A stretch of DNA of 64,000 nucleotides from Candidatus Hermodarchaeota archaeon (GCA_048885525.1 JBHLLP010000002.1:64001-128000), one strand, 5' to 3'. Shown: positions 11,730-50,389, counted from the first letter of the stretch. The notes: a model not told the origin generated them from the letters alone. Numbers and translations: made by a program.

Positions 11730-11975
11730 TAGATATATTTACTAATTTTTGATTGGTTATACAATTAACCATAGTAAACACTATATTATTATAGCAATGT
11801 TTGATATTTAAATATAGTGATTATTTAAATAGATATAAATTTACTTTTTAATTAAATAAATAACCTTTTAAGTAAAAGTATTTGTCTATAAGAGAAGTAA
11901 ATTTATATACTTTTATATATAATATCTATATATAAAAAGAAATTTTTTTATAATATAATCTATTGGTGAAGTGAA

Positions 11976-12200
11976 ATTTCTTCTAGCCAATCACAAAGAA
12001 AATCTACCTTAGAAATAGTAGAAAATATTTATAATGCCTTAGATGATGGGAAATTTCATACAATAAGCGAAATTTCTGAAAAGGCAAAGTCGAACTGGAT
12101 TACAGTAAAAAATCAAGTAGAACTTATTAAAAAAATTCAAGATTTACCTAAAATTGATATAATTCATGCCTCAAAGCAGATATTAGTGAGAAAAGTATAA
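11976..12200 (+). CDS. Small winged-helix/HTH DNA-binding protein (74 aa, ATT start; absent from the ORF track)
   Basis: Hand translation (M)SSSQSQRKSTLEIVENIYNALDDGKFHTISEISEKAKSNWITVKNQVELIKKIQ...; HTH pattern TISEIS..A...W.TV; GGTGA SD at 11965-11969. Confidence 0.7.
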   Translation: MSSSQSQRKSTLEIVENIYNALDDGKFHTISEISEKAKSNWITVKNQVELIKKIQDLPKIDIIHASKQILVRKV

Positions 12201-12312
12201 TTTAGAAAGGATATAAACTTGTATTGTAAGCAGTATCAGAAAAAAATTGTATCTTATACTTACTTTAATGTTAATAAACAAATATTACCCTATTTATCAG
12301 AAATATGAGATA

Positions 12313-12360
12313 AATTATTGTTGAGAAAATTTTTAGTCAATAATTACTGTTGAGAAAATT
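12313..12360. repeat. 19-bp direct repeat (AATTAYTGTTGAGAAAATT x2, 29-bp period)
   Basis: Copies at 12313-12331 and 12342-12360 with one mismatch. Confidence 0.75.
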
Positions 12361-12545
12361 AAAAAAGACAAAAAAGAAGAAGCCTAAGTAAAGAAGCTTA
12401 TAGTATTTACAGATAATTACAAATTGTAAAAATTTAAAGGCTCAAATAGAATTTCTGACTAAATCAATAAATCTTCCTAGGAAATATGATATCTCTATAG
12501 AAGGTTTTTTTTAAAAAATCTAAAAAAAAAATATTAAAAATTAAT

Positions 12546-13460
12546 ATGATTGAAAATAAAAATAATAAATCGGCTGAGTCAAATAATAAAGAAAAGTGTT
12601 GTAGAAATCCAAATATTAATATTAGAAATGGGGCAAAGGTATGTTTAAATTGTGGTATGGTAATAGGCGTTGTATTACTACAGAAAGAAAGAAGAGCTTT
12701 CACTTTAGATGAAAGAAGAAAAAGAAAGCGAACTGAAAAAAGGTGGAGAGCTTATGGTCCCAGGACCATTCTTTCAAATGAAATTATAGACAGTAAAGGT
12801 AAAATCATTGATGCTAAAAAAAGATTAAAAATTAAACGTTTATCAAAAATACAAAGATCTTTAACTACAGGAATAGAGAGAAATTTATGGGAAGCTGAGC
12901 CAAAAATGTCATATCTGGTTTCTAAATTAAATATTCCTGATTATGTTTTTAAAACGGCCTGGACAATTTATAAATCTGCTGCGGAAAAGAAATTAACAAT
13001 GGGTAGATCGATTAAAGGATTTATAGCTGCTTCTTTATATGTTGCAATACGAACTTATGAAATTCCTCGGTTATTAGAAGAAATAACTGACGCTCTCTTT
13101 ATCTCTCGAAGAACTGTCATTCGTTCTTTAGGAATATTATTTAGAGAAATATTACCAGATCTTAATCTTAAATATAAACCAATTACACCAGAACAATTAG
13201 TATTTAAATTTGGAAATGAGTTAAAAATACCTATCAAAATACAAAAAAAAGCAGTTAATTTACTAAGATATTCGTCTAATAGAGGGCTTTCTACTAATGG
13301 AAAAGATCCAAAAGGATTTGCAGCTTCAGCTATTTATATGGCGGCAAAATCTACTGATCATCGTAAAACTCAGAGTCAAGTTTCAGATACAGCAAAAATC
13401 ACAGAAGTAACTTTAAGAACTAGAATAAAAGAAATTAAAGAATTATCCCGTTTAAATTAA
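12546..13460 (+). CDS. tfb: Transcription initiation factor IIB
   Basis: N-terminal zinc ribbon (CC...CLNCG), GRSI..FIAASLY, GKDPKGFAASAIY, ITEVTLRTR HTH. Confidence 0.93.
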   Translation: MIENKNNKSAESNNKEKCCRNPNINIRNGAKVCLNCGMVIGVVLLQKERRAFTLDERRKRKRTEKRWRAYGPRTILSNEIIDSKGKIIDAKKRLKIKRLSKIQRSLTTGIERNLWEAEPKMSYLVSKLNIPDYVFKTAWTIYKSAAEKKLTMGRSIKGFIAASLYVAIRTYEIPRLLEEITDALFISRRTVIRSLGILFREILPDLNLKYKPITPEQLVFKFGNELKIPIKIQKKAVNLLRYSSNRGLSTNGKDPKGFAASAIYMAAKSTDHRKTQSQVSDTAKITEVTLRTRIKEIKELSRLN

Positions 13461-13470
13461 GAGTGTATTC

Positions 13471-15525
13471 ATGAATTCGAAAGGGTTATTTTTAGTAAGT
13501 CCTAACATAGGACATCCCAAAATATTGAATATTGATAGTAAATTAACTAAAAAAGACTTTAAAACAGATTTATTAATCATATCTAATATAAAGAATCCAA
13601 AAAAAGTAAAAGAATTCTTAACAGATAATATTAAATTAATACCTATTTTTGACTATAAGTGGAAATTAGAACAACTTCTAAAAAAAAGAGGTTTAAGAAA
13701 AAAAATCAAACGATTATGGAGAAAAATAAAAGCTTTTTTCTCATTTAGAAAAAAGGAAAAACATTTTGAAAGTTCAATAGAAGAATTAGACAAGTTTGGA
13801 GAAAAACAAAAAAGAACAGTAAAAATAAAAAAGAAGGATATAAAGAAAATAAAGCCTCGCGCTTTTAGGGGAATCCCAATAATTACTAAAATCATAAATA
13901 TAATATCAACAACCTCAATAAAGATCAATAACTCAAAATATATTGATGATCAATATTGTAGACCTCAGAATTATTTAAGAAAATTAGACGTTTTTGATAA
14001 TTTGGATTATTTCTTTAAAATTACTTTAGAATTTAAAATAACTGATGAGATTTTAAAATTTTTGTCAACCAAAAAGTTCGTAATGTTTGACATTTTAGTT
14101 GAAGATATAAATTTGGACAAAGAAATAAATTATCACGCTATTGTAATTTCAAAAAACGATTGGACAAATATCAATATCATACAAGCAACTGATTTACATA
14201 TAGCTAAAAGAAATGATGAAATATTTGATAAAATAAATAAAATGTATCGAAATCTTAGAAGTAAAAATATTAAAAAAATAAATCAAATAGAAACTAATCA
14301 ACTAAACTCAAAAGATAAAGGTGATATTAGAAAATCTCTTTTTAAAATTGATCTCTCATTTAAAAAGAGACTGATTAATCCAAACAATCTTTTTAGAAAA
14401 TTTATTGAGATTGTAAATAAGAAAGTAACCAAAAATGAAATTGACTTTATAATTATTACAGGAGATATTGTAGATTTTACTAATATTAGTAAAACACCAG
14501 AAAATAAAAATAAAATTTTTAGGTATAAAAAGAGTAATTGGAAAGTCTTCAAAATAATTGTCTTGAATATAAATCAGACTAATACTAAGGGTGTTAAAAG
14601 ATCAACGGAAATATTATGTCCAATCTTTACCATTCCCGGCAATCATGATTATCGCCCTTGGCAGTATGATTTAAATTGGGGAGGAATTTATAAAAAAATA
14701 GGGCTTAAAAAAATTGAAGCTCAAGCATTAAAAGATGAATATTCAGCTTCTCCAATCAAAGCTATTTTAAAAAGTGAAAATGCATTAAAAGGATATTTGT
14801 CCGAAATAAATGCTTCACTAAATTACTATTTAAAATTAGAAAATTCTGTGTTTATTTTTTTAAATACTGGGGCGGATTCCTATAAAAAAATAACAGATTT
14901 TATATCAGGAAGCCCTTCTCTAACAGGTCTTACTCACAGGCAAATAGAATTTTTAAATAATATTATTGAATATAAGCACAATAAAAAATCTCAAATTTTT
15001 CTTTGTTTGCATGCACCTCCTATAAATACAAGAGAGAAACGAGGTATATTAAGCCGAATAAAGAAAAAATTTAAAAAAATGATGAGAATACATTTAGATC
15101 AGTTCAAAGAATCTAAATTTGCAAGTCTAAAAAGGAAAAGAGAAAAAGCCAGAATTGATAATAAATTTAATATAACATATGGAACGATTTCTTCTAATTG
15201 GGAGAAATTGATTGATTTTTGTATCAAATATTGTATTCTAACTATCTCAGGTCATACACACATGTTAAATGAATATAGATTGAAAAAATCTTTACAAAAT
15301 AGCTCTAATGATAAGGAAGTGAAAAATTCATCTTTTTCAGTATTTTATGATGATTATTCTGAGATTTGTAAAAACATAAAGGATATTCAAAAATATAGTC
15401 CCTTTATAGTTCAAACTCCTGCGCTAGGATTAAAATCCTTTAAAAGACTTAAGAAAGCAGGAGCATATCGAGAAATAATAATAAAAAATGGAAAATTAGA
15501 TTCATTTCAAGTTAAATATCTATAA
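13471..15525 (+). CDS. Calcineurin-like metallophosphoesterase with a long basic N-terminal region
   Basis: TDLH, ITGDIVD, PGNHD, CLHAPP, SGHTH. Confidence 0.85.
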   Translation: MNSKGLFLVSPNIGHPKILNIDSKLTKKDFKTDLLIISNIKNPKKVKEFLTDNIKLIPIFDYKWKLEQLLKKRGLRKKIKRLWRKIKAFFSFRKKEKHFESSIEELDKFGEKQKRTVKIKKKDIKKIKPRAFRGIPIITKIINIISTTSIKINNSKYIDDQYCRPQNYLRKLDVFDNLDYFFKITLEFKITDEILKFLSTKKFVMFDILVEDINLDKEINYHAIVISKNDWTNINIIQATDLHIAKRNDEIFDKINKMYRNLRSKNIKKINQIETNQLNSKDKGDIRKSLFKIDLSFKKRLINPNNLFRKFIEIVNKKVTKNEIDFIIITGDIVDFTNISKTPENKNKIFRYKKSNWKVFKIIVLNINQTNTKGVKRSTEILCPIFTIPGNHDYRPWQYDLNWGGIYKKIGLKKIEAQALKDEYSASPIKAILKSENALKGYLSEINASLNYYLKLENSVFIFLNTGADSYKKITDFISGSPSLTGLTHRQIEFLNNIIEYKHNKKSQIFLCLHAPPINTREKRGILSRIKKKFKKMMRIHLDQFKESKFASLKRKREKARIDNKFNITYGTISSNWEKLIDFCIKYCILTISGHTHMLNEYRLKKSLQNSSNDKEVKNSSFSVFYDDYSEICKNIKDIQKYSPFIVQTPALGLKSFKRLKKAGAYREIIIKNGKLDSFQVKYL

Positions 15526-15552
15526 ATAGTTTATTCATGACATAAAAAAGCA

Positions 15553-15888
15553 GTGGAGGTGAAAACTAAAATAAAAGATGAGAAAATATGTCAGATATGT
15601 AGCTTTCCAAAAGAATTATGTATCTGTGAAAAATTAGGAGCCGAGGATCAACAAATAGAAATTTATAATGAAAAAAGAAGATGGGGGAAAAAAGTGACCA
15701 TTGCTAAGTTTAATGGTAACTTTAATATTGATTTAGATAATCTTATTACTAGAGCAAAGAAAAAGTGCGCTTCTGGTGGAACATATGGAGACAATTATAT
15801 TGAAGTACAAGGAGATCATCGTTTTAGATTAAAAAAATTTCTAATTAATGAAGGTTTCCCTAAAGAAAAAATTTTAATTGAAGATTAA
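15553..15888 (+). CDS. sui1: Translation initiation factor aIF1 (SUI1 family); true start may be ATA at 15571
   Basis: CQICSFPKELCIC zinc motif, RRWGKKVT, KKKCASGGT, IEVQGDHR. Confidence 0.92.
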   Translation: MEVKTKIKDEKICQICSFPKELCICEKLGAEDQQIEIYNEKRRWGKKVTIAKFNGNFNIDLDNLITRAKKKCASGGTYGDNYIEVQGDHRFRLKKFLINEGFPKEKILIED

Positions 15889-16065
15889 AATTGTGAATGA
15901 TGCATTAATTGGTTTAAAGCTATAGATGATTTTAGAGAATTTATAATAGATCTGGATTATATCTTTATTATTATAGAGATTTAAAAGCCTCTCTTTTGAA
16001 ATCAAAAAAAATATAAAAAATCAATAAATCACTTGAAAATTAATGATATTCTTCTTAATCCTATC

Positions 16066-16545
16066 TTATTTTTCCTTTAGAAAAAACATTTTTCTCTTGG
16101 AATGAACTGCTTCAAAAGATTCTTTATAAATTTTGATGTCTTCATGTATTTCTTCTAATTCTTCATTTTTCAGCATATTATCAAAAATTCTTTTTGTTGA
16201 GAGGTATAATTTAGGAACAAATGTATCTATTTGAGATAATTGGTAAGCTAGTTCTTTTATTGAAGAAAAATCTAATTTCAAATTAATTTCTTTCCTTTTA
16301 ATTCTTTCAATAATTTTCTTCTCCAATTTTCTTCGTGAAATATTACTCCATGTTATTTCATACACGAAATAATTGACAGACTGAACTGCTTCAGTTAAAA
16401 GGGCGGTTCCTGTTGCTATAAAAATGCTTCCCGTAATCAAATATGCTGTTAAAGTCCCTAATGCTAGCGTTAATGATCTATAAATTATACTTTTAACAAT
16501 ACTTTGTTTCCACTCTATTTTCGACAATTTTTTTTTTAATGTCAT
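16066..16545 (-). CDS. DUF2061-like membrane protein with a C-terminal helical extension
   Basis: SIVKSIIYR, two hydrophobic helices, YFVYEITW. Confidence 0.65.
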   Translation of the reverse strand: MTLKKKLSKIEWKQSIVKSIIYRSLTLALGTLTAYLITGSIFIATGTALLTEAVQSVNYFVYEITWSNISRRKLEKKIIERIKRKEINLKLDFSSIKELAYQLSQIDTFVPKLYLSTKRIFDNMLKNEELEEIHEDIKIYKESFEAVHSKRKMFFLKEK

Positions 16546-16681
16546 CTCAAAGTTTTTATAATTCCTATTTTATAAGAATTTCAGTTAATATATTTAATAA
16601 TTTTTTTCTTAATTAATCAATAATGAATATTCTCCAAATTGTCTTTTTGAAAAAAAAGTTTCTTTAAAAAAAAATGAAGCA

Positions 16682-17344
16682 CTAGTCATATTCTAAAGAT
16701 TTATAACAAAACCACCAATCATAGCACCTATATTCCTTAGATCTTTGTTCTGCTGTTTCTTCATCTGTGGGGGGTGGTATTATAACTTGTTGACTAATTA
16801 ATTCATTATTTGGCCAATTTGCAGGAATTGCAACCTTCTCTTGATCTGCATTTTTCAGGGCTTTAATTATTCTAATAATTTCATCTATATTTCGACCAAG
16901 TTCTTGTGGATAAAAGAGAATTACTCTTATTACTGTCTTTGGATCAACAATAAAGACAGCTCTAACAGTATTAGGTCCTTTACCAAGATGGATCATGCCC
17001 AGTCTTTTAGCAATATTACCATTATCAGCAATTATTGGAAATGGTATTTTTACTCCTAATTTTTCGGCAATCCATTCTATCCATTTTAAATGTGAAAAAA
17101 CCTGATCTATGGAAAGTCCTACTAATTCACATTCTAATTTTTGGAATTCTTCATATCGCTTTGCAAAAGCTACATATTCAGTTGTACACACAGGTGTAAA
17201 ATCTGCAGGATGACTAAAAAATACAAACCATTGTCGTTTAAAATCTTTTGGAATTTCTTTTTTACCGTGAGTTGTTATTACTTCCATCTCTGGAAATTTA
17301 TCACCAATTAATGGAAATGAATTAGAATTTTTAGAGTTATTCAT
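16682..17344 (-). CDS. Peroxiredoxin (Prx6/archaeal type)
   Basis: [33 protein letters not shown]; GAGGTGA SD. Confidence 0.95.
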
Positions 17345-17423
17345 ATAATTTCACCTCAGATATTTTTTTTATTATATCTTATTATATTCTTTTTAATTAG
17401 ATATCAAATTTTAATCGATAATC

Positions 17424-17690
17424 TTATGGTTTTGATATTTTTTTGTTTATGTAATCTATTATTATCAAATTTTTGGGTTCTAATTTCATTTTTCCTATAT
17501 CTTTTGATATCTCATTTAAAACATTCTTTTTATTAGAACGATCTTTTATCCTTGAGATTATTTTAATTTTTAATTCTTTGTTCCTCTTAAACCTTAAATT
17601 ATTTTTCTTGGTTTGTTCTAATTTTCTAATATTTCCTGATTTTAAGTATTTTTTATTATTTTTTTCATTGCTATGTGTCAAATTTTTCAT
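17424..17690 (-). CDS. Hypothetical Lys/Asn-rich protein
   Basis: ATG ORF co-oriented with neighbours; no motif; may be spurious in AT-rich DNA. Confidence 0.3.
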   Translation of the reverse strand: MKNLTHSNEKNNKKYLKSGNIRKLEQTKKNNLRFKRNKELKIKIISRIKDRSNKKNVLNEISKDIGKMKLEPKNLIIIDYINKKISKP

Positions 17691-18023
17691 CTGTTTATTA
17701 TATTCTATTAATTCTATTATTAAATTTAACTATTACTTAATTTTCTCTGAAGTAATTTAAAATAATAATTTGAGTCTTATAGGATAATTGATTTGGTTAG
17801 TTTTTATAAACTATATATCTAAGGATTAATTTTAGATTTCCTAAGTTAATAAATTTCAAACCATTTTTATATATTTTCTTAAAAAATACATACCTTTTAA
17901 TTTTTTTGTTTTAAAAAGATAAAAATTAAAATTATTTTATTGTATAGACATTATTAGAGTAATTATTTTATAATTTAAGGTTATTCCTATGCTCTCTTTT
18001 AAGTTTCAAATTACATAATAGAT

Positions 18024-19043
18024 TCAATTTTTATCTTTTTCTAATATTGATTCATAAACCTTAATGTAATCATCAACCATTCTTTCAACAGAAAACTTTT
18101 TTTCAACCCATCTTCGACATTCTGAGCGATCAATAAGATCAATTTTTTTTAATGCATTAATTGCTTCTTCATGAGAATTGACTAAAAAGCCAGTTTTTCC
18201 ATTTACAATTACTTCAGCCATACTACCTTTGTTAAAAGATATTACGGGTGTTCCACAAGCCATTGCCTCTACAACTGACAATCCAAATGCCTCAGGAATA
18301 TTAATAGGGTTTAATAATGCATAAGCTCCTCCTAATAACTCATCTCTTTTCTTTGGATCAGCAATACCAACATACTTGACTAATTCATCATCAAGGAAAG
18401 GTTCAATATTTCTTTTAAAATAATCCTTATCTTGAATAATTCCTGCTAAGATTAATTTCATTTCAACTTTAAGAGCCATTTCAATAGCTTCTTTAGCACC
18501 TTTATCATGATGTAAACGACCAAAAAATATTAGATAATCTTTTGGATTAGATTTAAAAGTAAATTGGTTCAAATCTATACCATGATATACCGTAGCTATA
18601 TAATTTAATTCTGGAATTCTAGCAGCATTACTTATAGAAACGTAATAACTCTGATTATTGTATTTCTTATACACAGGTAAAATTTTGGGAGATGAGATAC
18701 CATGAATTGTTGTTACCACAGGAGTGGATGTCATTTTTATATATGTTAATGGTAAAAAATCAAAATGGTTATGAATAATATCAAAATCATCTCCTCTTTC
18801 GAACAATTCAGATATATGTAAACATTCCCATACTTTTGGAATTATTTGATTATCTTCTTCATAACCATGTTCACAAACACCAACAAGATTTGCTTTAGTA
18901 ATGGAATTTTTTGTAGCAAATAAAGTGACATCAATCCCTTTCTTTATAAGTCCTTCTGTCAATAAAGAGACTATATATTCCCATGGTCCATAAGAGCGAG
19001 GAGGAGTACGCCATGCGATTGGTGAGAGTATTGCTACGTGTAT
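18024..19043 (-). CDS. Glycosyltransferase family 4 (start extended to ATA at 19043)
   Basis: Extended N-terminus HVAILSPIAWRTPPRSYGPWE; DIIHNH, VVTTIHG, EAFGLSVVEAMACGTP. Confidence 0.9.
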   Translation of the reverse strand: MHVAILSPIAWRTPPRSYGPWEYIVSLLTEGLIKKGIDVTLFATKNSITKANLVGVCEHGYEEDNQIIPKVWECLHISELFERGDDFDIIHNHFDFLPLTYIKMTSTPVVTTIHGISSPKILPVYKKYNNQSYYVSISNAARIPELNYIATVYHGIDLNQFTFKSNPKDYLIFFGRLHHDKGAKEAIEMALKVEMKLILAGIIQDKDYFKRNIEPFLDDELVKYVGIADPKKRDELLGGAYALLNPINIPEAFGLSVVEAMACGTPVISFNKGSMAEVIVNGKTGFLVNSHEEAINALKKIDLIDRSECRRWVEKKFSVERMVDDYIKVYESILEKDKN

Positions 19044-19045
19044 TA

Positions 19046-20005
19046 TTAGTCACCTAATACAAAATTTTGCTTTTCAAGCCATTTAAGAATTTCTGAAAGA
19101 CTTGCGGTTGCCAAAGCTATAGAACTATCAGCACATCCATAATAAAGTAGGATATCATCATTTTCTTGAATCCAGCCACATGGAAAAACAACTTTATCAA
19201 CATCACCAAAGATTTCATACGATTCTTTTGGAGAAAAGACCCACTCATCAGATCGTGCGATTACTTTGCAGGGATCTTTTAGATCTAAAAGTCCAAGTCC
19301 TAAGCGATAAATGATACCACTAGCGGTTGTTTTAACTCCATGGTAAAGTATTAACCATCCAGAATCAGTTTTCAATGGAGGGGGAGATAAACCAATTTTA
19401 TTTGCATCCCACCAACTTCCATCTCTAGCGGGAATAAGAAGTTTGTGATCACCCCAATGTTTAAGATCCGGTGAAAAAGCAATCCATATATGGGCACCAG
19501 TTCCTGACATTTTAGCAACGGGTCTATGAAGTATTGCCCATCGATTATTAAACTGAATTGGAAATATAGCAGCATCCTTGTTCTCTGGTGGCATAATAAC
19601 CCCATAACGATTAAAATGCTTGAAATCTTTGGTACATGCTAATGAAACTAAAGGTCCAGCTTTAGAATAGGCAGTATAGATAATAACCCATAAATTTTTT
19701 TCTTCCAAGAATGTAATTCTAGGATCTTCAATACCCCATATTTCTTCTGGATAAGTCTTAGGATTTGGTGTCATAGTAGGTTGGGTATCAATATGCCAAT
19801 TACTTATTCCATCTTTACTACGAGCTAAAGTAAAATGGGAAATTCCTCTTTTATCTTCTACTCTCATTAGAAGTATAATTTCATTATGAAATTTAATTGC
19901 ACCTGCATTGAAAACTGTATTCGCAAGATAAGGCAAATCTTTTATTGAAATAATTGGATTGGCTGGATGCCGCTTAAAAAGCTCATTAAAATTTGATTTT
20001 ACGAT
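19046..20005 (-). CDS. GH130-like glycosidase/mannoside phosphorylase (start extended to ATC at 20005)
   Basis: LFKRHPANPII N-terminus, VFNAGA, GIEDPRI, ENKDA, LHRP, YHGV, VVFPCG, YYGCAD. Confidence 0.9.
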   Translation of the reverse strand: MVKSNFNELFKRHPANPIISIKDLPYLANTVFNAGAIKFHNEIILLMRVEDKRGISHFTLARSKDGISNWHIDTQPTMTPNPKTYPEEIWGIEDPRITFLEEKNLWVIIYTAYSKAGPLVSLACTKDFKHFNRYGVIMPPENKDAAIFPIQFNNRWAILHRPVAKMSGTGAHIWIAFSPDLKHWGDHKLLIPARDGSWWDANKIGLSPPPLKTDSGWLILYHGVKTTASGIIYRLGLGLLDLKDPCKVIARSDEWVFSPKESYEIFGDVDKVVFPCGWIQENDDILLYYGCADSSIALATASLSEILKWLEKQNFVLGD

Positions 20006-20018
20006 TAGATTAACACCT

Positions 20019-21245
20019 TTAAAATTCTAATTCTAAATTAACCTTTTGACAAGTTTTTTTAGCTTCTCTTGCTAGTTTGTATGCTTGATTATATTGTTTA
20101 GCAATAATTTCCCAAGAAACTACATTATCAAGATATCGCTTTAAATTCTCACCAAGTTTCAGTCGAAGATTCTCATTACAAGCTAGTTGAATTACCCTTT
20201 CTTTTAGCATTTTCTTTGTTGTAAATAATAAACCTCCACCACTTTCTAAAGTTTGAGCTGTTAATCCTTCCATTGGGGCTGTTGTTACATAAGGTTTATT
20301 TAAAGCTATTATCCTTGCTAATGTTCCAGATTGTGTTTCGTCAACCGTAGGTAATACAATGAAATCACAAATTGCCATTACTTTATAGTAGATATCTCCT
20401 CTAGGGATAAATTCATAATAATGAGCGATCCCTTTGTCTTGAAGTTCAAGAATGTCAGATTTCCACATTTCATAATCATTTTTATGATTCGGGTCTCGTA
20501 AAGTACCTGCAGCAAATAATTCCCATTTCTGACCACACTTTTCTTTTATCTTTTCATGAATCTCTCCCCAACTTGAAAGTAGTATGTCCCATCTTTTATT
20601 AGTTTGTATCCATCCAATCATTCCAACAAGATGATCTGATAAATTCAATTGATCTAAACCCAGCTCTGTCTTTAATTTATTAATTTCATCTATTCCCCAT
20701 CTTTTATCAGATCGGGCACCATGTGGAACCACCATAATATTTTTTGGAGTTTCCCATCCTCGGGCTCTAAAAGACCAATCCAATCTCCACTTTTGATAAT
20801 GGCATTTAAAAAAAACTACATCACTTCTTTGGCAAAGTTGATAAATAAAATCAGCTTCAAAATCAGTAATCCGTCCATGAATAGTATGTGGTTCAACTAC
20901 AATGGGATAATCATCAATTGCCTCAAGAAGTTTAAGAAAACCTTCATTTCTATCCCCTATCCCACGTTTATCTCTATATTCATAAAGTCCATATTCATGT
21001 TCTAAATGAATTGCATATGGTTTCAACTCATCAATTTTTTTTGCAATAGGTTCATACCAATCATATCTATTTATCTCAATTAAAGGAAAAACCCCTTCTC
21101 CTTCTCCATCTGTATGGCTAATTACAAAAACATCCCTTTGAGGATTTGTCTTTTGGATGAACTCTCTTGCTTCTTCAGCAAATGTAGCAATACCACAAAG
21201 TCGTGGTGGGTAAGAACTTATTATTACTATTGGTTGATTTGACAT
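20019..21245 (-). CDS. Glycosyltransferase family 4
   Basis: SSYPPRLCGIATF, HLEHEYGLY, VVPHG, TQSGTLA. Confidence 0.88.
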   Translation of the reverse strand: MSNQPIVIISSYPPRLCGIATFAEEAREFIQKTNPQRDVFVISHTDGEGEGVFPLIEINRYDWYEPIAKKIDELKPYAIHLEHEYGLYEYRDKRGIGDRNEGFLKLLEAIDDYPIVVEPHTIHGRITDFEADFIYQLCQRSDVVFFKCHYQKWRLDWSFRARGWETPKNIMVVPHGARSDKRWGIDEINKLKTELGLDQLNLSDHLVGMIGWIQTNKRWDILLSSWGEIHEKIKEKCGQKWELFAAGTLRDPNHKNDYEMWKSDILELQDKGIAHYYEFIPRGDIYYKVMAICDFIVLPTVDETQSGTLARIIALNKPYVTTAPMEGLTAQTLESGGGLLFTTKKMLKERVIQLACNENLRLKLGENLKRYLDNVVSWEIIAKQYNQAYKLAREAKKTCQKVNLELEF

Positions 21246-21249
21246 TTTT

Positions 21250-23547: not shown

Positions 23548-23630
23548 AAAAATTATTTTATTTTTTACTAAGATTTTTGTTATATTTACTTAAAATATGT
23601 TAATTTAAATACAAATTGAAAAGAAGAGAT

Positions 23631-24053
23631 TTACTTTATAATATCTGTTATAAAACAAGTTTCTACAATTTTAATACCTTCAATTTGAGAAATTTTTCCT
23701 TCAATTAATGGATTAAACTCTTCAATTGAAGAAATCTCAATTTTTATTAATAGACCACAGTCACCAGATAATCTCCAGATATCTGTTACTTCTTCAATAT
23801 CTTTTAAATTGTTTATTATTCTCTTAATTTCTTTAAAATTTAGTTCCAATTTTACGGTTGCATTAATTTTTGGCTGGCTTTCAATATCATATTCAATAGT
23901 AAATTTGTCAATTATTTCATTTTCTATCATCTTTTTAACACGACGTCTGATAGTCGCTTCTGTTTTTCCTACAACCTCAGCAATTTCACTATAAGATTTT
24001 CTACTATCTTCTTTCAATTCCTCTAAAATAACAAGATCAATTGCATCCAACAT
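23631..24053 (-). CDS. Lrp/AsnC family transcriptional regulator
   Basis: MLDAIDLVILEELKEDSRKSYSEIA...TIRRRVKKM, LSGDCG; ATG at 24053 preferred over the TTG at 24071. Confidence 0.92.
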   Translation of the reverse strand: MLDAIDLVILEELKEDSRKSYSEIAEVVGKTEATIRRRVKKMIENEIIDKFTIEYDIESQPKINATVKLELNFKEIKRIINNLKDIEEVTDIWRLSGDCGLLIKIEISSIEEFNPLIEGKISQIEGIKIVETCFITDIIK

Positions 24054-25612: not shown

Positions 25613-25614
25613 TT

Positions 25615-39420: not shown

Positions 39421-39539
39421 CCCAAATTATCTTATTACCTATTTCTTTAATGATTTTAGCATTAATTAATATATTGACTAAAATTATAAATTAATCCTAA
39501 TCATTTTAATAAGTTAATAAAAAAAAGCTACTGGTATTT

Positions 39540-42293: not shown

Positions 42294-42329
42294 ATTGTTT
42301 ATGTTAAAAATTTTTTAAAAAGTGATTAT

Positions 42330-43790
42330 ATGAGCGATCTGATTTGTGTATTTGATGTAGGAACTACTGGAGCGAGAACTATGATATTTGACATTAATGG
42401 TAATGTAGTTGCTAAAGCTTATGAAGAATATCCCGTAGTAAAACAGCCAATAGGAACTTCTGAACATGATCCAATAATTTGGTGGAATGCTATTAAAAAC
42501 ACATGTAATAAAGTGGTAAGAACAATTAATCTTGAAGATATAATTGGGATATCTGCAACTTTTCTTCGAGCAGCAGTTACTATTATTGATAAAAAAGGTG
42601 AAGTACTTCATCCTGCTTTAACTTGGATGGATGAAAGACAAGAACATACAGCAATAGAATGGAAAAAAGATGTGGATCTTAGAAGGTCGATTCCTAAAAT
42701 ACTCTGGGTTAAAAATAATAAACCAGATTTATTCAGTAGAGCTGATAAAATTATCCATACTGATTCTTATATATATATGAAATTATGTGAAAAATGTGTA
42801 TCAGACCCGACAATGGCGATTTGGGGGCCACTAAATAACAATTCGCTTAAATGGGATGAGGAGATAGGTGAACGATTTGATTTACCCATAGAATTCTGGC
42901 CAGAATTGCATCAACCCGGAGAAATTATTGGTGAATTATCCAGTAGTGCTGCGGATGTTTTAGGTTTAAAGAAAAACATCCCGATTATAGTCGGGGGCAG
43001 TGATCAACAATGTTCATCTTTAGGATTAGGTGTTATCAACGTAGGACAAGCTAAAGCTACTACAGGGACAGGAACGTTTGTGGATTATGTTGTAGATCAC
43101 CCCATTGAACCCGCGGGAGATTTTCCTATTTTCTCACTGCCTTCTGTTATACAGGGTAAGTGGAATATTGAGGGTGTTTATCCAGGATCAGGTGATGCAT
43201 TAAAATGGTTTGCGAATAATTTCTCGCAATTACAATTTAAACAGAGTCAGGAGCAGGGTAAAAATGTATATGATATACTAACTTCTGAAGCAGCAACGGT
43301 ACCTCCTGGAAGTGGAGGATTGCTATTTTTAACGGCGTTATCTATCTTCCGAAAAGGGACTATTCATGGTTTAGATTGGAATCATACAAGAGCACATATA
43401 ATACGTTCAATTATGGAATCTGCAGCGCTAGGTACTCGATATTATCTCCAAACGACAGAAGCAATGGGTGGTGAAAAAACGACTGAATTAAGAGTTGATG
43501 GAGGAGGAATGAACAGCGATTTATGGGCTCAAATATTTGCAGATATTACAGACAAAAAAATATTAGTTTCAGAGAATAAAGATGGTGCTGCTTTGGGTGC
43601 AGCGATTTTGGGATTTATAGGATGTAAAAGATATAATTTAACTGAAAAAGCTATTGAAAATATGGTTAGATTTCCTACATTTAAAGATCCAATTAAAGAA
43701 AATTCAAAAATATATAAGAAATTATATAGAATTTTTCTACCAACACTACTTGAAATTTATTCAAAAAAGAGAGTTACTAAAGATTTATAA
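42330..43790 (+). CDS. FGGY-family carbohydrate kinase
   Basis: FDVGTTGAR, WMDER, GSDQQC, TGTG, VDGGG, LWAQIFADI, ALGAAIL. Confidence 0.92.
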   Translation: MSDLICVFDVGTTGARTMIFDINGNVVAKAYEEYPVVKQPIGTSEHDPIIWWNAIKNTCNKVVRTINLEDIIGISATFLRAAVTIIDKKGEVLHPALTWMDERQEHTAIEWKKDVDLRRSIPKILWVKNNKPDLFSRADKIIHTDSYIYMKLCEKCVSDPTMAIWGPLNNNSLKWDEEIGERFDLPIEFWPELHQPGEIIGELSSSAADVLGLKKNIPIIVGGSDQQCSSLGLGVINVGQAKATTGTGTFVDYVVDHPIEPAGDFPIFSLPSVIQGKWNIEGVYPGSGDALKWFANNFSQLQFKQSQEQGKNVYDILTSEAATVPPGSGGLLFLTALSIFRKGTIHGLDWNHTRAHIIRSIMESAALGTRYYLQTTEAMGGEKTTELRVDGGGMNSDLWAQIFADITDKKILVSENKDGAALGAAILGFIGCKRYNLTEKAIENMVRFPTFKDPIKENSKIYKKLYRIFLPTLLEIYSKKRVTKDL

Positions 43791-43915
43791 TTTTTTTTAT
43801 ATATTAACACTTTTTCGTTATTAAACGTTAAAATCCGTAATTTCAAAAATTTAGTAAAGTATTTTTGGAACATTTTATTTCAAAGATTATAGAATATTAA
43901 TCTTATATATCTCAC

Positions 43916-44743
43916 ATGCCTTATTTCAAGAACCAAGAGGGTTATAATCTATATTATGAAAATATTAACCCAGATTCAAAAGCATGCACTATTATTTTAC
44001 TTCATGGATTCGCATCATCAGCTTCTTTTTTTAAAGCACAAATTAAAATATTGAAAGAAAATTATCGTATTATTGCTTTTGATGCATTAGGGCATGGGAG
44101 GAGTGAACACCCTAAGGAATTAAACCTGAAAAAAAACCTTAGATTTGATATAATAAGAGATTTAGAAGATCTTCTAAAGTATTTAGAGATAAATGAGAAA
44201 TATGGTATAATAGGTCACTCGTTAGTTGGAGGAATGATCGGTCAGTTATTTGCTGTAAAACATCCCGAGAACATCAAATTTCTAATCCTACTAAATTCAG
44301 GATATATCATGATTGATAATGTTATAAGAAATATATTTTACAATTTACTCCCATATTTTATCAGAATGAACTTTTTAGAAGTATTAGCAAATTCTGTTGA
44401 AAAAATTTTAGATAAAACCATTCCATACATAATAACTGCTTTATCGGACTCATTATCTGGATTAAAGTTAACTAAAGATGAATTATACATGCAAATTGAA
44501 GATCAAATTTTCCGAATGATACATGAGATAAAAGAATATGACCCATCAGGTATTAGTTGCCCTACTCTAATAATTGGAGGAAGGCTTGATAATTTTGCTC
44601 CAGAGCAAATGTCAGAAGAATTACATAGAATGATTCCAAATTCTACTTTAAATATTATTGATATGGCTGGACATTTCGCTCCTGCTCAGAGAAAAGAGAT
44701 AGTTAACGAATTAATATGTGATTTTATTAAAAATCTTAAGTAA
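43916..44743 (+). CDS. Alpha/beta hydrolase
   Basis: LLHGF, DALGHGRS, GHSLVGG, GRLD, AGH. Confidence 0.9.
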   Translation: MPYFKNQEGYNLYYENINPDSKACTIILLHGFASSASFFKAQIKILKENYRIIAFDALGHGRSEHPKELNLKKNLRFDIIRDLEDLLKYLEINEKYGIIGHSLVGGMIGQLFAVKHPENIKFLILLNSGYIMIDNVIRNIFYNLLPYFIRMNFLEVLANSVEKILDKTIPYIITALSDSLSGLKLTKDELYMQIEDQIFRMIHEIKEYDPSGISCPTLIIGGRLDNFAPEQMSEELHRMIPNSTLNIIDMAGHFAPAQRKEIVNELICDFIKNLK

Positions 44744-44785
44744 CTATTACATGTATTTCTTTTAATCACACTTTATTGAATTATT

Positions 44786-45160
44786 ATGAGTGAAAATTAT
44801 AAATTTAATGATAATAATTTAACTATTTCATTTTTCAAAGATGAAGTGAAAAAATTCGTTGAAAATCGTAATTGGAATAAATACCATTCCCCTAAAAATT
44901 TAGTTCAAGCTATTAATTGTGAAGCTGGAGAATTATCTCAATTATTATTATTTAAAGATTATACGAAGGAAGAGATATGGAAGAATGAAACTCTTCTTAG
45001 AAATATTGGTGATGAAATTGCTGATGTGTTTATATACCTTTTAAGTCTTATTAATGCTCTAGGTTTAGATTTGAGCCGAAGTTTCATAAACAAAATGGAA
45101 AAAAATAAAAAGAAATACTCAAGCAAAGAATTTAATAATGGAATTTATTATAAAAAATAA
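44786..45160 (+). CDS. MazG-like nucleotide pyrophosphohydrolase (DCTPP1-like)
   Basis: RNWNKYHSPKNL, EAGEL, DEIADV, KMEKNKKKY. Confidence 0.88.
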   Translation: MSENYKFNDNNLTISFFKDEVKKFVENRNWNKYHSPKNLVQAINCEAGELSQLLLFKDYTKEEIWKNETLLRNIGDEIADVFIYLLSLINALGLDLSRSFINKMEKNKKKYSSKEFNNGIYYKK

Positions 45161-45177
45161 AAATTTGAGAATTTAAA

Positions 45178-45648
45178 ATGCCAAGTATAAATGAAAATCT
45201 GTTAGCTCCATGTGGGCTATATTGTGGTGTGTGTGCTATACATATTGCTGATCGAGACAATAATTTAAAGTTTAAAAAAATACTTGTGGATGTTTACAAA
45301 CCGATTTCTAAAACTATTGATGACATTAAATGTTCGGGTTGTCTCTCAAAAAACCAAGAGGATATATTTGGATATTGTCAAACATGTCCTATCAGAGATT
45401 GTATAATCAGTAAAGGATTTGATGGTTGTTATCAATGTAATGATTTTCCATGCAAGTTTATAGAAAATTTCCCTATTCCTGTTGGCAAAAAAGTTATTCT
45501 AAGGGCAATACCTCGATGGAAAGAAATAGGAACTGAAAAATGGGTCGAAGAAGAGGAGAAGAGATACCATTGTCCTGAATGTGGTAATTCTTTATTCCGA
45601 GGAGCAAATAGATGTAATAAATGTGGAATTTCAGTTAATGTTGATTGA
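45178..45648 (+). CDS. DUF3795-like Cys-rich protein with a C-terminal zinc ribbon
   Basis: APCGLYCGVC, CSGC, CPIRDC, CYQCNDFPC, CPECG...CNKCG. Confidence 0.8.
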   Translation: MPSINENLLAPCGLYCGVCAIHIADRDNNLKFKKILVDVYKPISKTIDDIKCSGCLSKNQEDIFGYCQTCPIRDCIISKGFDGCYQCNDFPCKFIENFPIPVGKKVILRAIPRWKEIGTEKWVEEEEKRYHCPECGNSLFRGANRCNKCGISVNVD

Positions 45649-45710
45649 AGAATATGTTATTTTTTTATTAATAATAAGAATTTTTATAGATTTTTCTATT
45701 ATTTTTTAAC

Positions 45711-46688
45711 ATGGTTATTAAGAATATTGATGGAATAATTAAGGAACAATTAAACTATACCTTAAATGAAACAAACATTCCTAACTTGGGGAAATTATAT
45801 AGAGGTAAAGTTAGAGATAACTACATAAAACAAGATACCAGAATAATTATAGCAACAGATCGTTTAAGTGCTTTTGATAGAGTAATAACCACCATTCCAT
45901 TTAAGGGTCAAATGCTAAACCAAGTTTCATCATTCTGGTTTGAAAAAACTAAAGAGATCGTAAAGAATCATATTATAGATATTCCAGATCCAAATGTGGC
46001 GGTCGTCCATCAATGTAAAACAATTTTAGTTGAAGTGATAGCAAGAGGATATCTAACTGGTAGTATGTGGCGTGATTATAATAAAGGAAAACCCACTTCG
46101 GGTATAATGCCTCCTAGAGGGATGCAAAAAAATCAAAAGTTTGATGAAATAATTCTAACCCCATCTACAAAAGCAGAATCAGGTCATGATATTTACCTTT
46201 CGAGAGAAGAAATCTTAGAAAAGGAAATGGTTGAGAAAGATGTGTATGAGAAAATGGAAGAAGCCGCAATTAAATTATTTAAATTTGGACAAAATTTTTG
46301 CGAAAAGAATGGTCTTATCCTAGTTGATACCAAATATGAATTCGGATTAAAAGATGGAGAATTAATGGTCATTGATGAAATACACACACAAGATTCATCC
46401 CGATTTTGGATACTTGAAACTTATGAAGAAAAATTTCAAAAAGGAGATGTCCCCGATATTCTAGATAAAGAAATCTTTAGAAAATGGCTTATGGATACGT
46501 ACCCTGAAATTTTTCCAGATATTAAGCCTGATGAAAAAATTCCTCCAATTTCAGAAGATATTAAAATTGAATTAGCAAAAAGATATATGCGAAGTTATGA
46601 AAAGATTACTGGACTAGAGTTTAAGGCAGAAATTTCAGATGTTCAGAAAAGGATTTATAAAAATTTAAAGAAAGCCAATTATTTATAG
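45711..46688 (+). CDS. purC: SAICAR synthetase
   Basis: GKVRD, TDRLSAFD, RGYLTGS, LVDTKYEFG, IDEIHT.DSSRFW, DK. Confidence 0.95.
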   Translation: MVIKNIDGIIKEQLNYTLNETNIPNLGKLYRGKVRDNYIKQDTRIIIATDRLSAFDRVITTIPFKGQMLNQVSSFWFEKTKEIVKNHIIDIPDPNVAVVHQCKTILVEVIARGYLTGSMWRDYNKGKPTSGIMPPRGMQKNQKFDEIILTPSTKAESGHDIYLSREEILEKEMVEKDVYEKMEEAAIKLFKFGQNFCEKNGLILVDTKYEFGLKDGELMVIDEIHTQDSSRFWILETYEEKFQKGDVPDILDKEIFRKWLMDTYPEIFPDIKPDEKIPPISEDIKIELAKRYMRSYEKITGLEFKAEISDVQKRIYKNLKKANYL

Positions 46689-46734
46689 AATTTAAGAAAA
46701 ATTTATATAATAATTCATAGTAATTTATCGTATT

Positions 46735-46938
46735 ATGCTAAATTTAATATTTTTATTTATAGATTTTACTTTATTTATTCTCAGTTTTATATTTATAATC
46801 CTAGATCTCAAAAGTTATAAAGAAGAAAAAAATGAAGAACTAAAAGGAACTGTAATACCAAAACGAAGTCGTTATGCATTATTATTTGGTCTATTAGCAC
46901 TAATTCTTGCTGTAATTATTAGTTTAGGGTATACTTAA
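46735..46938 (+). CDS. Small two-TM membrane protein
   Basis: Two hydrophobic helices around a charged loop; TATA-like TTTATATA upstream. Confidence 0.55.
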   Translation: MLNLIFLFIDFTLFILSFIFIILDLKSYKEEKNEELKGTVIPKRSRYALLFGLLALILAVIISLGYT

Positions 46939-47163
46939 TTTAATAACTACTATTACTGAGATTATATTGCTTTTTTTTTATATAGATTTCCTTAATTAGT
47001 TTTTCTTTTAACCAATTTAATTTTTCTTGGAAAATTAGGTTTTAGTATAGTGTAATTACTTAAATTTTGTTTAGGAGATCTAAGTTCTTGTCGTTTTTGT
47101 CGATGAGCATTATTTTTAAGTTAATAAGAATTAATAAAAATATATACAACTTCTTTTTCACAA

Positions 47164-47433
47164 ATGGATTACCAAGAATTTGAAGTAGAAATAACGTTAA
47201 TGAATAAACCAGCAGCGAGGGATCCAGTAGGAGAAACTATTCAAAAAGACCTTTTAGCAAAAAAAGGTTATGATTTGGTATTTAATGTTCGTTCAGGGCA
47301 ATTCTTGAGAATTAAACTTAATGCTGTTGATGAAAATCAAGCTAAAAAAATGGTAGAAAAAATGTGTAATGACCTACGAATTTTCAATCCAGTTACTCAA
47401 AATCTAACTATTTTAAAAGTATCAAAATCATGA
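47164..47433 (+). CDS. purS: FGAM synthase subunit PurS
   Basis: RDPVGETI, VRSG, MC...IFNPV; overlaps purQ. Confidence 0.92.
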   Translation: MDYQEFEVEITLMNKPAARDPVGETIQKDLLAKKGYDLVFNVRSGQFLRIKLNAVDENQAKKMVEKMCNDLRIFNPVTQNLTILKVSKS

Positions 47434-48143
47434 ATATAAAAATAGCTGTAATCGAATTCGCAGGTAGCAACTGTGATTTAGATACTATACATGTTTTGAA
47501 AAACGTTATCGATGGAATTGAAGCGGATCTAGTATGGCATAATCACTTTAAGGAATCGAAATATGATGGAGTAATTTTACCTGGAGGATTTGCATTTGGA
47601 GATTATTTAAGAGCAGGAATAATTGCTGCTCACAGTCCAGCAATTGATGAAGCACGAATAATGTTAAATGATGGAAGACCTGTAATAGGTATCTGTAATG
47701 GATTCCAAATATTAACAGAAGCACAATTTCTCCCAGGTGCTTTATTACGAAATGATTCACTTAAGTTTGTCTGTAAGTGGGTTAATTTGAAAGTGGAAAA
47801 TAATAATACTGCATTTTCTAATAAAATGAAATTAGGAGAGGTATGTACTTTACCTATAGCTCATGCTGAGGGACGATATTTTGCTGATAATCTGAAAGAG
47901 TTAGAGGAAAATGACCAAATTGTTTTTAGATATTGTACCGAACAAGGAACACTTACAGAAGAAGCGAATCCAAATGGTTCTTTAGAAAATATTGCAGGAA
48001 TTTGCAATTTAAACCGAAATTGTATTGGATTAATGCCTCATCCTGAACGTGCATCAGAAGCAATATTAAGTCCAAAAAGAACGACCCATGGAAAATTATT
48101 TTTCGAATCCATGATAGAATTCATCAAACGGAGGTTATCATAA
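47430..48143 (+). CDS. purQ: FGAM synthase subunit PurQ
   Basis: FAGSNCD, PGGFAFGDYLRAG, GICNGFQ, HAEG, NPNGS, MPHPER. Confidence 0.96.
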   Translation: MNIKIAVIEFAGSNCDLDTIHVLKNVIDGIEADLVWHNHFKESKYDGVILPGGFAFGDYLRAGIIAAHSPAIDEARIMLNDGRPVIGICNGFQILTEAQFLPGALLRNDSLKFVCKWVNLKVENNNTAFSNKMKLGEVCTLPIAHAEGRYFADNLKELEENDQIVFRYCTEQGTLTEEANPNGSLENIAGICNLNRNCIGLMPHPERASEAILSPKRTTHGKLFFESMIEFIKRRLS

Positions 48144-50389
48144 TAACGAAGGTAGATGTTAACGGAACGGAAGTTGATGTGGAAATAACTAACGATGAGT
48201 ATGAAAAAGTAAAAGCTTTATTACAGAGAGATCCAAATATAACTGAATTAGGGATGTTTGATGTAATGTGGAGTGAACATTGCTCTTATAAATCATCACG
48301 ACCAAAATTAAAGATATTCGAGGATGCTGAGGCAAATTATAACTATGTTTTAGCGGGTCCTGGACAAGATGCTGGAGTTATCGATATCGGAGATGGTTAC
48401 GCATTAGCATTTCGAATAGAATCTCATAATCATCCATCTGCAATTGAACCTTATCATGGAGCTGCTACTGGGATTGGAGGTATAATAAGAGATATTCTAT
48501 GCATGGGTGTTCGACCAATAGCACTATTGGATCCATTGAGATTTGGTCGTTTAAAAGATAATCCTCATTCACAATGGTTATTTAAATATGTAGTAAAAGG
48601 TATTGCTGATTATGGTAATTGCACTGGAATACCAACCATTGGTGGAGAAGTTGAATTTGATAATAGTTTTGAGAGTAATTGTTTAGTAAATGTAGCATGT
48701 ATAGGATTAGGAACTATAGATGATTTTAAACATGCACCGAGTAGAGCTTACAATCCTGGTGATTATGTAATTTTAATGGGAGGATCTACAGGAAGAGATG
48801 GTATCCATGGAGTTACATTTGCATCCCGTACTTTAACTGAAATGTCTGAAGCTGATAGACCTGCTGTTCAAATTGGTGATCCATTTACCAAGAAAATGAT
48901 TATTGAAGCAACTTTAGAAGCTATAAAAACAGGATATGTAAGAGGATTAAAGGATCTTGGTGGAGGCGGTTTAACTTGCGCAACTAGTGAATTAACGGGA
49001 GATGGTAATACAGGAGCAAAGGTAGATTTAAGAAAAGTCTTTACAAGAGAACCTGGAATGAATTCTTATGAAATAATGCTTTCTGAGTCACAAGAAAGAA
49101 TGGCTTTCATTGTTAAACCTGAAGGATTAGATACTGTTCTTGACGTATTTAGAAAATATGAAATAAATTTTGCTGTCATAGGGAAAACTGATGATTCGAA
49201 AGTTCTAAAAGTATATAATAATGATAATCTTGTCGTAAATATCCCCTCGAAAGCCCTTTCAGAATCACCAACATTTAAGCGACAAGAGAAGCGACCGTTA
49301 TATCTAGATGAATTACTATCTCAAAAAACACCAGAACCAAATTTAGGATTAGATGAAATTATTTATAAATTAATAGCATCTGAAAATATATGTAGTAAAG
49401 AATGGGTTTATCGACAATACGATCATGAAGTTGGTGTTAGATCTGTTGTAAAATGTGGTGAAGGTGATTCAGGTGTTTTAAGAATAATTGGTACAAATAA
49501 ATTTATTACTGCGAGTGTTGGCGTTAATTCTAAGCATTGCTTTTTAGATCCTTATGAAGGAGTTAAAGGAGGATTAGTTGAAGAATGTGGTAACGTAATA
49601 GCAAACGGAGGAAAACCAATGGCTATGGTAAATTGCTGTAATTTTGGAAATCCTGAAATTCCCGAATCATTTTGGTATTTTTCTCAAGCTGTTGAAGGTA
49701 TGAATGATTTTTGTAGAACTTTAAAAATTCCTATAATAGGAGGAAATGTCTCCTTTTATAATGAAGATGAAGTTAAAAAAAAGGCTATTAAAGCAACTCC
49801 CATGATTATGATCATAGGACTTATCGAAGGTGAAGAAAACATAATTACACTTCCTTTTAAGAATGCAGGGGATTATATATTTCTAATAGGTGAAACTAAA
49901 GCAGATTTAGGTGGTTCAGAGTATCATTCAGTAATTTACAATCTAGAAGGAGGAAATCCCCCTAAAGTTGATGAATCAAAGATAAAATCAACTTGGGATT
50001 TTTTATTCGAGCTCTATAAATACAGATTAGTTAAAGCTAACCACGATGTAAATAAAGGAGGGTTTATAATAACACTAGCTGAAATGTGTTTTATGAATAA
50101 TTTGGGAGTGGATTTAGATCTTACAGACTGTTTTGATGAAAATTTGAAAGATGATGAAATTTTATTCAGTGAATCTAATGGTAGATTTATTATTGAAACA
50201 GATCCAAAAGATAATAAACAAATAATAGATTTAGCTAATAAATTTGGGATTTCTCTTAAAAAAATAGGTGTTATAATACCTCAACCTGAAATTAAAGTAA
50301 AAGGGTTAAAAAATAAAGTTTTTACACTCTCTATTCCAAAATTAAAGGAAAAATTCGATTCCACAATTCCAAATTTAATGGAATTATAA
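48143..50389 (+). CDS. purL: FGAM synthase subunit PurL (start ATA 48143 or GTG 48179)
   Basis: WSEHCSYKS, ESHNHPS, GAATGIGGIIRD, DLGGGG, SESQER, GGNVS; GGAGGT SD at 48130-48135. Confidence 0.96.
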   Translation: MTKVDVNGTEVDVEITNDEYEKVKALLQRDPNITELGMFDVMWSEHCSYKSSRPKLKIFEDAEANYNYVLAGPGQDAGVIDIGDGYALAFRIESHNHPSAIEPYHGAATGIGGIIRDILCMGVRPIALLDPLRFGRLKDNPHSQWLFKYVVKGIADYGNCTGIPTIGGEVEFDNSFESNCLVNVACIGLGTIDDFKHAPSRAYNPGDYVILMGGSTGRDGIHGVTFASRTLTEMSEADRPAVQIGDPFTKKMIIEATLEAIKTGYVRGLKDLGGGGLTCATSELTGDGNTGAKVDLRKVFTREPGMNSYEIMLSESQERMAFIVKPEGLDTVLDVFRKYEINFAVIGKTDDSKVLKVYNNDNLVVNIPSKALSESPTFKRQEKRPLYLDELLSQKTPEPNLGLDEIIYKLIASENICSKEWVYRQYDHEVGVRSVVKCGEGDSGVLRIIGTNKFITASVGVNSKHCFLDPYEGVKGGLVEECGNVIANGGKPMAMVNCCNFGNPEIPESFWYFSQAVEGMNDFCRTLKIPIIGGNVSFYNEDEVKKKAIKATPMIMIIGLIEGEENIITLPFKNAGDYIFLIGETKADLGGSEYHSVIYNLEGGNPPKVDESKIKSTWDFLFELYKYRLVKANHDVNKGGFIITLAEMCFMNNLGVDLDLTDCFDENLKDDEILFSESNGRFIIETDPKDNKQIIDLANKFGISLKKIGVIIPQPEIKVKGLKNKVFTLSIPKLKEKFDSTIPNLMEL

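Follow-up and report, generated by a model that had tools for sequence, protein, structure and literature searches.

How are genes started when their reading frames hold no ATG, GTG or TTG between the upstream in-frame stop and the N-terminus that the protein needs? This question is raised by a stretch of 64,000 nt (G000:C2:64001-128000, referred to as the window) from Candidatus Hermodarchaeota archaeon (GCA_048885525.1, JBHLLP010000002.1), in which a sequence-only reading had placed the starts of five genes at ATA, ATT or ATC codons (collectively ATH, or AUH in RNA, as distinct from the canonical starts ATG, GTG and TTG) behind Shine-Dalgarno (SD) motifs. Every coordinate, motif, spacer and upstream stop given for these five sites is correct in the sequence. 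From the comparisons described below, we consider it highly probable that the sites in the window are genuine translation starts at near-cognate AUA, AUU and AUC codons. The host genome, a metagenome-assembled genome (MAG) of 3.58 Mb in 87 contigs with 29.4% GC and 99% completeness, belongs to an AT-rich Asgard (Promethearchaeota) archaeon, whose proteasome alpha orthologues are 80-92% identical in Promethearchaeota/Promethearchaeia (Lokiarchaeia-type Asgard). The sites and their genes are located as follows.

11965..11969, plus strand: GGTGA SD of the gene for a small helical protein; its TGA (11967-11969) is the in-frame upstream stop
11976..12200, plus strand: small helical-protein gene, 74 codons, ATT start 11976-11978, 6 nt after GGTGA
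15556..15563, plus strand: SD GGAGGTGA before the second SUI1/aIF1 copy, 7 nt before ATA
15571..15888, plus strand: second SUI1/aIF1 paralogue, ATA at 15571, opposite the ATT start codon of the main aIF1 in the alignment
18024..19043, minus strand: GT4 glycosyltransferase, ATA start 19043-19041, supported by orthologue column, bacterial N-termini, Pfam and contigs
19050..19054, minus strand: GGTGA SD of GT4, 6 nt before ATA; its TGA (19052-19050) is the in-frame stop
19046..20005, minus strand: GH130 phosphorylase, ATC start 20005-20003, supported by orthologue column, Pfam GH130 match and contigs
20014..20018, minus strand: AGGTG SD of GH130, 8 nt before ATC
48130..48135, plus strand: GGAGGT SD of purL within the 3' end of purQ, 7 nt before ATA
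48143..50389, plus strand: purL, ATA start 48143-48145, overlapping the stop of purQ (47430..48143) as TAATA

In the GT4 gene, the first canonical start is the TTG at 18962, 27 codons downstream of the ATA. The start column reads ATA in the host and ATG, ATT, ATG, TTG and ATG in five further species, and the protein sequence HVAILSPIAWRTPPR follows in all six, with synonymous differences. Bacterial GT4 homologues with 68% identity open with MRVAMLAPIAWRTPPR at the same residue as the ATA start, and position 8 of the N-domain profile of Pfam falls on residue 25. The GH130 gene has an in-frame TAG at 20029-20027 and its first canonical start at TTG 19936, 23 codons downstream of the ATC; its start column holds ATC in the host and G014, ATG in G001 and G029, and ATA in G005 and G015. 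The purL gene had been rated as one of two weaker cases with GTG alternatives. Its GTG lies at 48179 and would cost 12 codons, but it is unconserved across 16 species, and the start column of the same species (ATA in the host, ATC in G002, 13 ATG and one TTG) places purL among the strongest cases. The SD motif (C/A)(G/A)GAGG is kept in all 16, with a GAGG core and mostly as CGGAGG. The position of the N-terminus and the interchange of ATG, TTG and ATH at one and the same column are thus directly visible, and both the sister species and the bacterial GT4 homologues start at the ATH column and not at the downstream TTG or GTG.

The small gene reaches its first ATG, GTG or TTG only four codons before the stop. 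Its start column reads ATT, ATT, ATA, ATT and ATT in five species, with GGTG(A) kept 6-7 nt upstream in all of them, and the differences are distributed over the codon positions as 102/58/310, a pattern that marks it as a real coding gene. The protein gave no match against Pfam, and AlphaFold produced a weak model of it (pLDDT 60) with four helices and no wing. The predicted product is helical and possibly HTH-like, and the label of a winged helix-turn-helix (wHTH) protein could not be confirmed. Contigs of two sequencing runs (X3 and X4) link position 11959 to 13238 via 26 different letters; with 20 letters on the short side and a depth of about 5, this junction weakly suggests a strain variant without the small gene and without the beginning of the open reading frame (ORF) that follows it.

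For a genome-wide count, we used all 3642 stop-to-stop ORFs of at least 100 codons and scored the in-frame codons which follow the upstream stop and lie at least four codons before the first ATG, GTG or TTG. Any 5-mer of GGAGGTGA was taken as an SD motif, the spacer was counted from the A of GGTGA, and the chance expectation was derived from ten control spacings within the same frame classes. At spacings of 6-7 nt, 51 SD-linked ATH codons (29 ATT, 17 ATA and 5 ATC) were observed vs. about 16 expected (odds ratio 4.6, p = 4.8e-12), whereas all other codons in the same test yielded 80 observed vs. 117 expected. The ATH codons were concentrated at 6 nt (29) and 7 nt (22), with 1-12 at the other spacings. 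The control codons AAH and TTH amounted to 2-7 per spacing without a peak, and CTG, ACG, AAG and AGG showed no SD-linked signal in this ORF set. ATG starts peak at 4-7 nt behind the SD (32, 21, 31 and 38), so the predicted enrichment of SD-linked AUH codons was found at the spacing optimum of ATG, and the link to the SD and its spacing are direct observations. Within the window, the genes with canonical starts at 9882 (GTG), 17344, 37607 and 41019 (all ATG) likewise carry (A/G)GGTGA 6-7 nt upstream, as had been noted. The association is especially tight where the TGA of GGTGA itself serves as the in-frame stop. Of 49 such ORFs, 24 have ATH and 8 a canonical codon in third place behind this stop, compared to an ATH share of 10% behind other TGAs and 14% behind TAA or TAG. 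Counted at 6, 7 and 4 nt from GGTGA, ATH occurs 24, 8 and 2 times and ATG 8, 11 and 11 times.

Only 5.5% of the first-ATG starts in the host genome are preceded by a 5-mer SD. Because SDs are rare overall, ATH starts make up about a fifth to a quarter of the strongly SD-led genes. Among 42 well-supported ATH genes (26 ATT, 11 ATA and 5 ATC), the usage of second codons resembles that of ATG genes. An estimate independent of the SD was obtained from 229 orthologue start columns compared between the host and G006, of which 6-7 (about 3%) are clear ATH cases next to 9 TTG and 2 GTG, an ATH count that is too small for significance on its own against codons such as AAT or AAA. Taken together, very probably about 1-3% of the genes in the host and its genus start at an ATH codon 6-7 nt behind a strong GGTGA-type SD, with purL, L10e, proteasome alpha and aIF1 among them.

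Examples of ATH genes whose proteins have named domains are L10e, a Ras-like GTPase, an RmlD-type reductase, a cytidylyltransferase (GGTFDHLH), an aldehyde:ferredoxin oxidoreductase, a GPN-loop GTPase and proteasome alpha. Their Pfam profiles open 2-9 residues after the ATH codon, and the canonical alternatives would remove the P-loop, the Rossmann GxxGxxG or the GGTFDxLH motif. The start column of L10e in 30 genomes of the family consists of 19 ATG, 5 TTG, 5 ATC and 1 ATA, with AGGTGAT 6 nt upstream in every ATH allele. That of proteasome alpha in 79 Promethearchaeota genomes consists of 57 ATG, 13 GTG, 1 TTG, 5 ATT and 3 ATA, followed by the N-terminus FQ(Q/G)xGRGYDMAITQFSPEGR, which is conserved throughout. 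Since the ATH alleles of proteasome alpha are spread over several sequence groups, the change probably arose more than once. The predicted pairing between SD and anti-SD is stronger for ATH than for ATG alleles (-10.6 vs. -6.9 kcal/mol, p = 4e-8, with relatives that are not independent of each other), and the difference has the same direction in all four gene families tested.

In the proteasome alpha gene of the host, an out-of-frame ATG (G000:C4:54913-54915) lies between the SD and the ATT at C4:54920 (GGAGGTTGATGAAATATT), and this also applies to L184, L194, L196 and L200. The ATG opens a short overlapping frame and could compete with the ATT. Frameshifting that sets out from an ATG or GTG in another frame close to the SD was rejected as a general mechanism, as most cases are without such a codon.

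Only one initiator tRNA was found in the host genome (C32:9579-9689), and it is of the canonical kind, with an A1:U72 pair, three G-C pairs and the anticodon CAU; our search of the host genome retrieved no paralogue of it. A reassigned code of the mitochondrial type, in which ATA stands for Met, was rejected because internal ATA behaves as Ile: in five bacterial homologues of GT4, the residues opposite its 12 internal ATA codons are I 33, V 13, M 8 and L 5 times, and a tRNA-Ile(GAU) is present. As internal ATA thus aligns with Ile, Val or Leu, the genome uses the standard code.

We favour, as the simplest reading, a mechanism that needs ordinary components only. The 3' end of the 16S rRNA would pair with the extended GGUGA or GGAGGU motif and thereby place the codon 6-7 nt downstream into the P site, where the ordinary initiator Met-tRNA (CAU) would pair at the first two bases and tolerate the mismatch at the third, so that the protein would begin with Met. 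The strong and precisely spaced SD would offset the weak contact between codon and anticodon, and changes from ATG to ATH, which are favoured by AT-biased mutation, would be tolerated for this reason; in some genes, such as the main aIF1 and the small helical gene, the ATH codon is stably retained. Which residue comes first, which tRNA is used, how efficient initiation is and whether aIF1 plays a part are points of this scheme that we infer. A relaxed discrimination of the third position, as proposed in the sequence-only reading, is one interpretation of these starts; what the data show is a dependence on a strong, precisely spaced SD.

Several points weigh against this reading. All support for it comes from sequence analysis. 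Chance alone should account for about 16 of the 51 SD-linked ATH codons, which renders single cases without orthologue support uncertain. The host MAG contains no 16S rRNA gene, and the anti-SD was assumed to be GAUCACCUCC. The tRNA census (34 genes with aragorn, 24 with Rfam) recovered 34 of about 46 tRNAs; many host tRNA genes probably carry unusual introns, and a second, intron-bearing initiator could escape such a search. The two GH130 genes with ATA alleles (G005 and G015) contain an extra in-frame GTG within the SD, and the window copy of aIF1 has in-frame GTGs at 15553 and 15559. Finally, the aIF1 of Sulfolobus rejects AUU in vitro (PMC4705826).

The in-frame GTGs upstream of the ATA at 15571 leave the start of the window copy of aIF1 ambiguous, in line with its earlier rating as a weaker case. 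This copy (15553-15888) is 63% identical to the main aIF1 encoded on contig C32. A second SUI1 gene occurs in only 2 of 31 related genomes, the host (G000) and G007, and two TAA stops interrupt the copy of G007 (G007:C18:24883-25194). In G007, the orthologue of the small gene at 11976 is found about 0.7 kb upstream of this copy, whereas in the host the ORFs 12546-13460 and 13471-15525 separate the two genes. The main aIF1 starts with ATT in each of the 16 members of the genus whose sequence is readable, in addition to the host's own copy, and the stops TGA-TAA stand two codons upstream of this ATT. A second genus uses ATA for its start, and others use TTG or ATG. The gene of a start-fidelity factor thus opens at a conserved AUH codon, which is true of the main aIF1.

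Among the alternatives, a special device for reading AUH fares best, although we regard it as improbable. Such a device might be a modified C34 of the initiator, a second initiator hidden by an intron, a specialised paralogue of aIF1, an RNA-editing event at the third base, or termination-reinitiation behind an upstream ORF. It would fit a frequency of AUH starts 10-30 times that of model bacteria, the presence of ribosomal-protein genes among the users, which suggests a good efficiency, and the two SUI1 genes of the host. The three cases in the window that start 1-14 nt from an upstream stop (GT4, GH130 and purL) speak in the same direction, as does the preference of ATH for exactly 6 nt with an in-frame TGA. 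On the other hand, the sole initiator tRNA found is canonical, and the second SUI1 gene is confined to the two genomes mentioned while the trait is genus-wide. The distance to the upstream ORF on the same strand, measurable for 37 ATH genes, exceeds 60 nt in 76% and 200 nt in 57% of them, so translational coupling is not general; with 25% of these genes lying within 60 nt, termination-reinitiation was rejected as the general class of start.

That the genes start instead at the next downstream ATG, GTG or TTG, with the upstream codons as untranslated leader and N-terminally shorter proteins, is very improbable. Gene callers do produce such models, as for the GT4 orthologue P0028 with 312 aa, and in a few genes no more than 5-12 codons separate the ATH from the next canonical codon. 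However, the segment upstream of the canonical start is conserved as protein with synonymous changes, holds catalytic or structural motifs and the starts of Pfam profiles, and matches bacterial N-termini residue for residue, and the small gene would be left without any usable canonical start.

To check the letters themselves, we used Logan contigs of a single study, assembled from four sediment-metagenome runs, over positions 11900-20100 of the window, a range that excludes purL. At 19043, 20005 and 15571 the contigs match the window without a single difference; they give ATA, ATC and ATT and not ATG at the covered sites, and list no variant at the four start codons in this range at a depth of about 12-28, although Logan contigs are blind to rare variants. 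Because the four runs are possibly the source samples, independent support for the letters comes mainly from the cross-species columns. The weakest alternative, that the ATH codons are assembly or sequencing errors or belong to decaying pseudogenes, may be thought of for a MAG in which AT-biased mutation favours changes from G to A or T, but it has next to no probability in view of the identical letters in these contigs, the recurrence of ATH in the corresponding column of species that were assembled independently (small gene, 5 of 5; main aIF1, 16 of 16), and the intact ORFs under purifying selection, which include the essential genes for L10e, proteasome alpha and PurL.

Beyond initiation at near-cognate codons as such, the starts of the form GGUGA-6 nt-AUH might constitute a distinct, regulated class of about 50-100 genes in this Lokiarchaeial genus, whose output would depend globally on how much aIF1, itself AUU-initiated, is present, and which would include genes for ribosomal protein, proteasome and purine synthesis. 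We put this forward tentatively and regard it as rather doubtful. If true, the prokaryotes nearest to eukaryotes would possess an archaeal, genome-scale counterpart of the stringency circuit known for IF3/infC or eIF1.

The spread of the signal among Asgard genomes was assessed by counting SD-linked ATH codons at 6-7 nt per sampled DNA, compared to chance and to canonical SD-led starts.

G006, same genus, 400 kb: 8 ATH vs. about 1.5 expected; 30 canonical SD-led starts
G026, another family of the order, 800 kb: 5 ATH vs. about 2 expected; 50 canonical SD-led starts
G081, Odin-like with a 1.4-Mb genome, 400 kb: 4 ATH, all GGTGA-6-ATA, vs. about 1.3 expected; 77 canonical SD-led starts
G115, another class, 400 kb: 3 ATH vs. 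about 2 expected; 63 canonical SD-led starts

The signal is repeated in G006, weak in G026 and G081 and absent in G115, which served as an Asgard negative control and uses SDs freely without an ATH peak in its 400 kb. Genome G027 (53.5% GC) contains too many spurious ORFs for an ORF-based statistic. In the G026 sample, non-ATH codons with 20-31 SD-motif matches appeared at every spacing equal to 1 modulo 3, a pattern which points to a long repetitive ORF full of GGAGG-like words.

AUH starts are known from bacteria, with two confirmed AUU genes in E. coli, where AUH initiates at 1-2% of AUG (10.1101/063800), and four AUH genes in S. aureus, all with extended SDs and 10-30% of AUG (PMC13009471). 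As in infC and pcnB of E. coli and infC, cvfC1, ccpN and citZ of S. aureus (10.1101/063800; PMC13009471), the AUH codons described here stand at the true N-terminus, and the weak codon and its strong or extended SD are maintained as a pair at a constant distance. The use of AUH by the gene of a start-fidelity factor is likewise shared, with infC there and the main aIF1 here. In contrast, the bacterial genomes contain 2-4 such genes (about 0.1% or less) compared to at least 35-50 (1-3%) in the host, an archaeon with eukaryote-type factors (aIF1, aIF2), whose AUH users include housekeeping genes and not just low-level regulators. According to reviews, archaeal starts are AUG, GUG and UUG only, initiation is SD-led or leaderless, and SDs are rare in Lokiarchaea (PMC7531240, PMC4705826). 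The host conforms to standard archaeal initiation in its GGUGA-type SD and in the spacing shared by the canonical genes of the window, and differs from it in that its strongest SDs are disproportionately attached to AUH starts. A single Asgard precedent is the tubulin gene AtubA of Kariarchaeaceae, which was repaired by a 'rare ATT start codon' (PMC13394414). There, too, ATT was deduced in an Asgard MAG, from a missing first beta-strand and a well-placed ribosome-binding site, but for a single gene of another Asgard lineage and without genome-wide or comparative analysis (PMC13394414). Our literature search found no paper on a genome-wide SD-ATH pattern. The data support the expansion, throughout a lineage, of a type of start site that is already known. 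Mitochondria also initiate at AUA, AUU and AUC, and many of them lack an SD and read internal AUA as Met. The host resembles them in the frequent use of AUH starts in an AT-rich genome and differs in the reading of internal ATA as well as in the SD dependence of its starts.

A lineage with a fifth to a quarter of its strongly SD-led genes on AUH, its own aIF1 included, is a natural system which could serve to study start-codon stringency with eukaryote-type factors and the balance of SD strength and codon strength. In terms of evolution, it exemplifies the decay of ATG to ATH under AT pressure, buffered by the SD. A practical consequence concerns annotation, because ATH starts are overlooked by common gene finders, which truncate first beta-strands, P-loops or gating N-termini, extend other genes, and drop small genes or label them 'partial'. 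This matters as Asgard genomes are mined for eukaryote-like proteins, and the published tubulin needed manual repair (PMC13394414). The systematic mis-annotation that had been anticipated is borne out in part. Apart from the truncated GT4 orthologue, the small gene of the host is absent from the protein collection, and its relatives are stored there as models of 54-115 aa, some truncated or extended; several are flagged 'partial' by NCBI and begin with YWGNNIS... or VENIY... The host GT4, in contrast, is stored in full length with 339 aa and an initial M, indicating that some annotation pipeline already takes ATA.

The host also possesses a tRNA-SeC with the anticodon TCA (detected by aragorn), and selenocysteine genes with in-frame TGA are likely to exist; these would also yield ORF pieces without canonical starts. 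On contig C72, at plus-strand offset 8795, a GTA stands right after a TAA (VESVSKYS) where the orthologue of G006 starts with MDSFSKYS. The next canonical start is 69 codons downstream, so that the gene either begins at the GTA, is broken or has its start shifted. At position 788 of the window, on the minus strand, a further GGTGA-6 nt-ATT arrangement opens an ORF of 63 codons with a product of low complexity (IYTRNNNTSK...).

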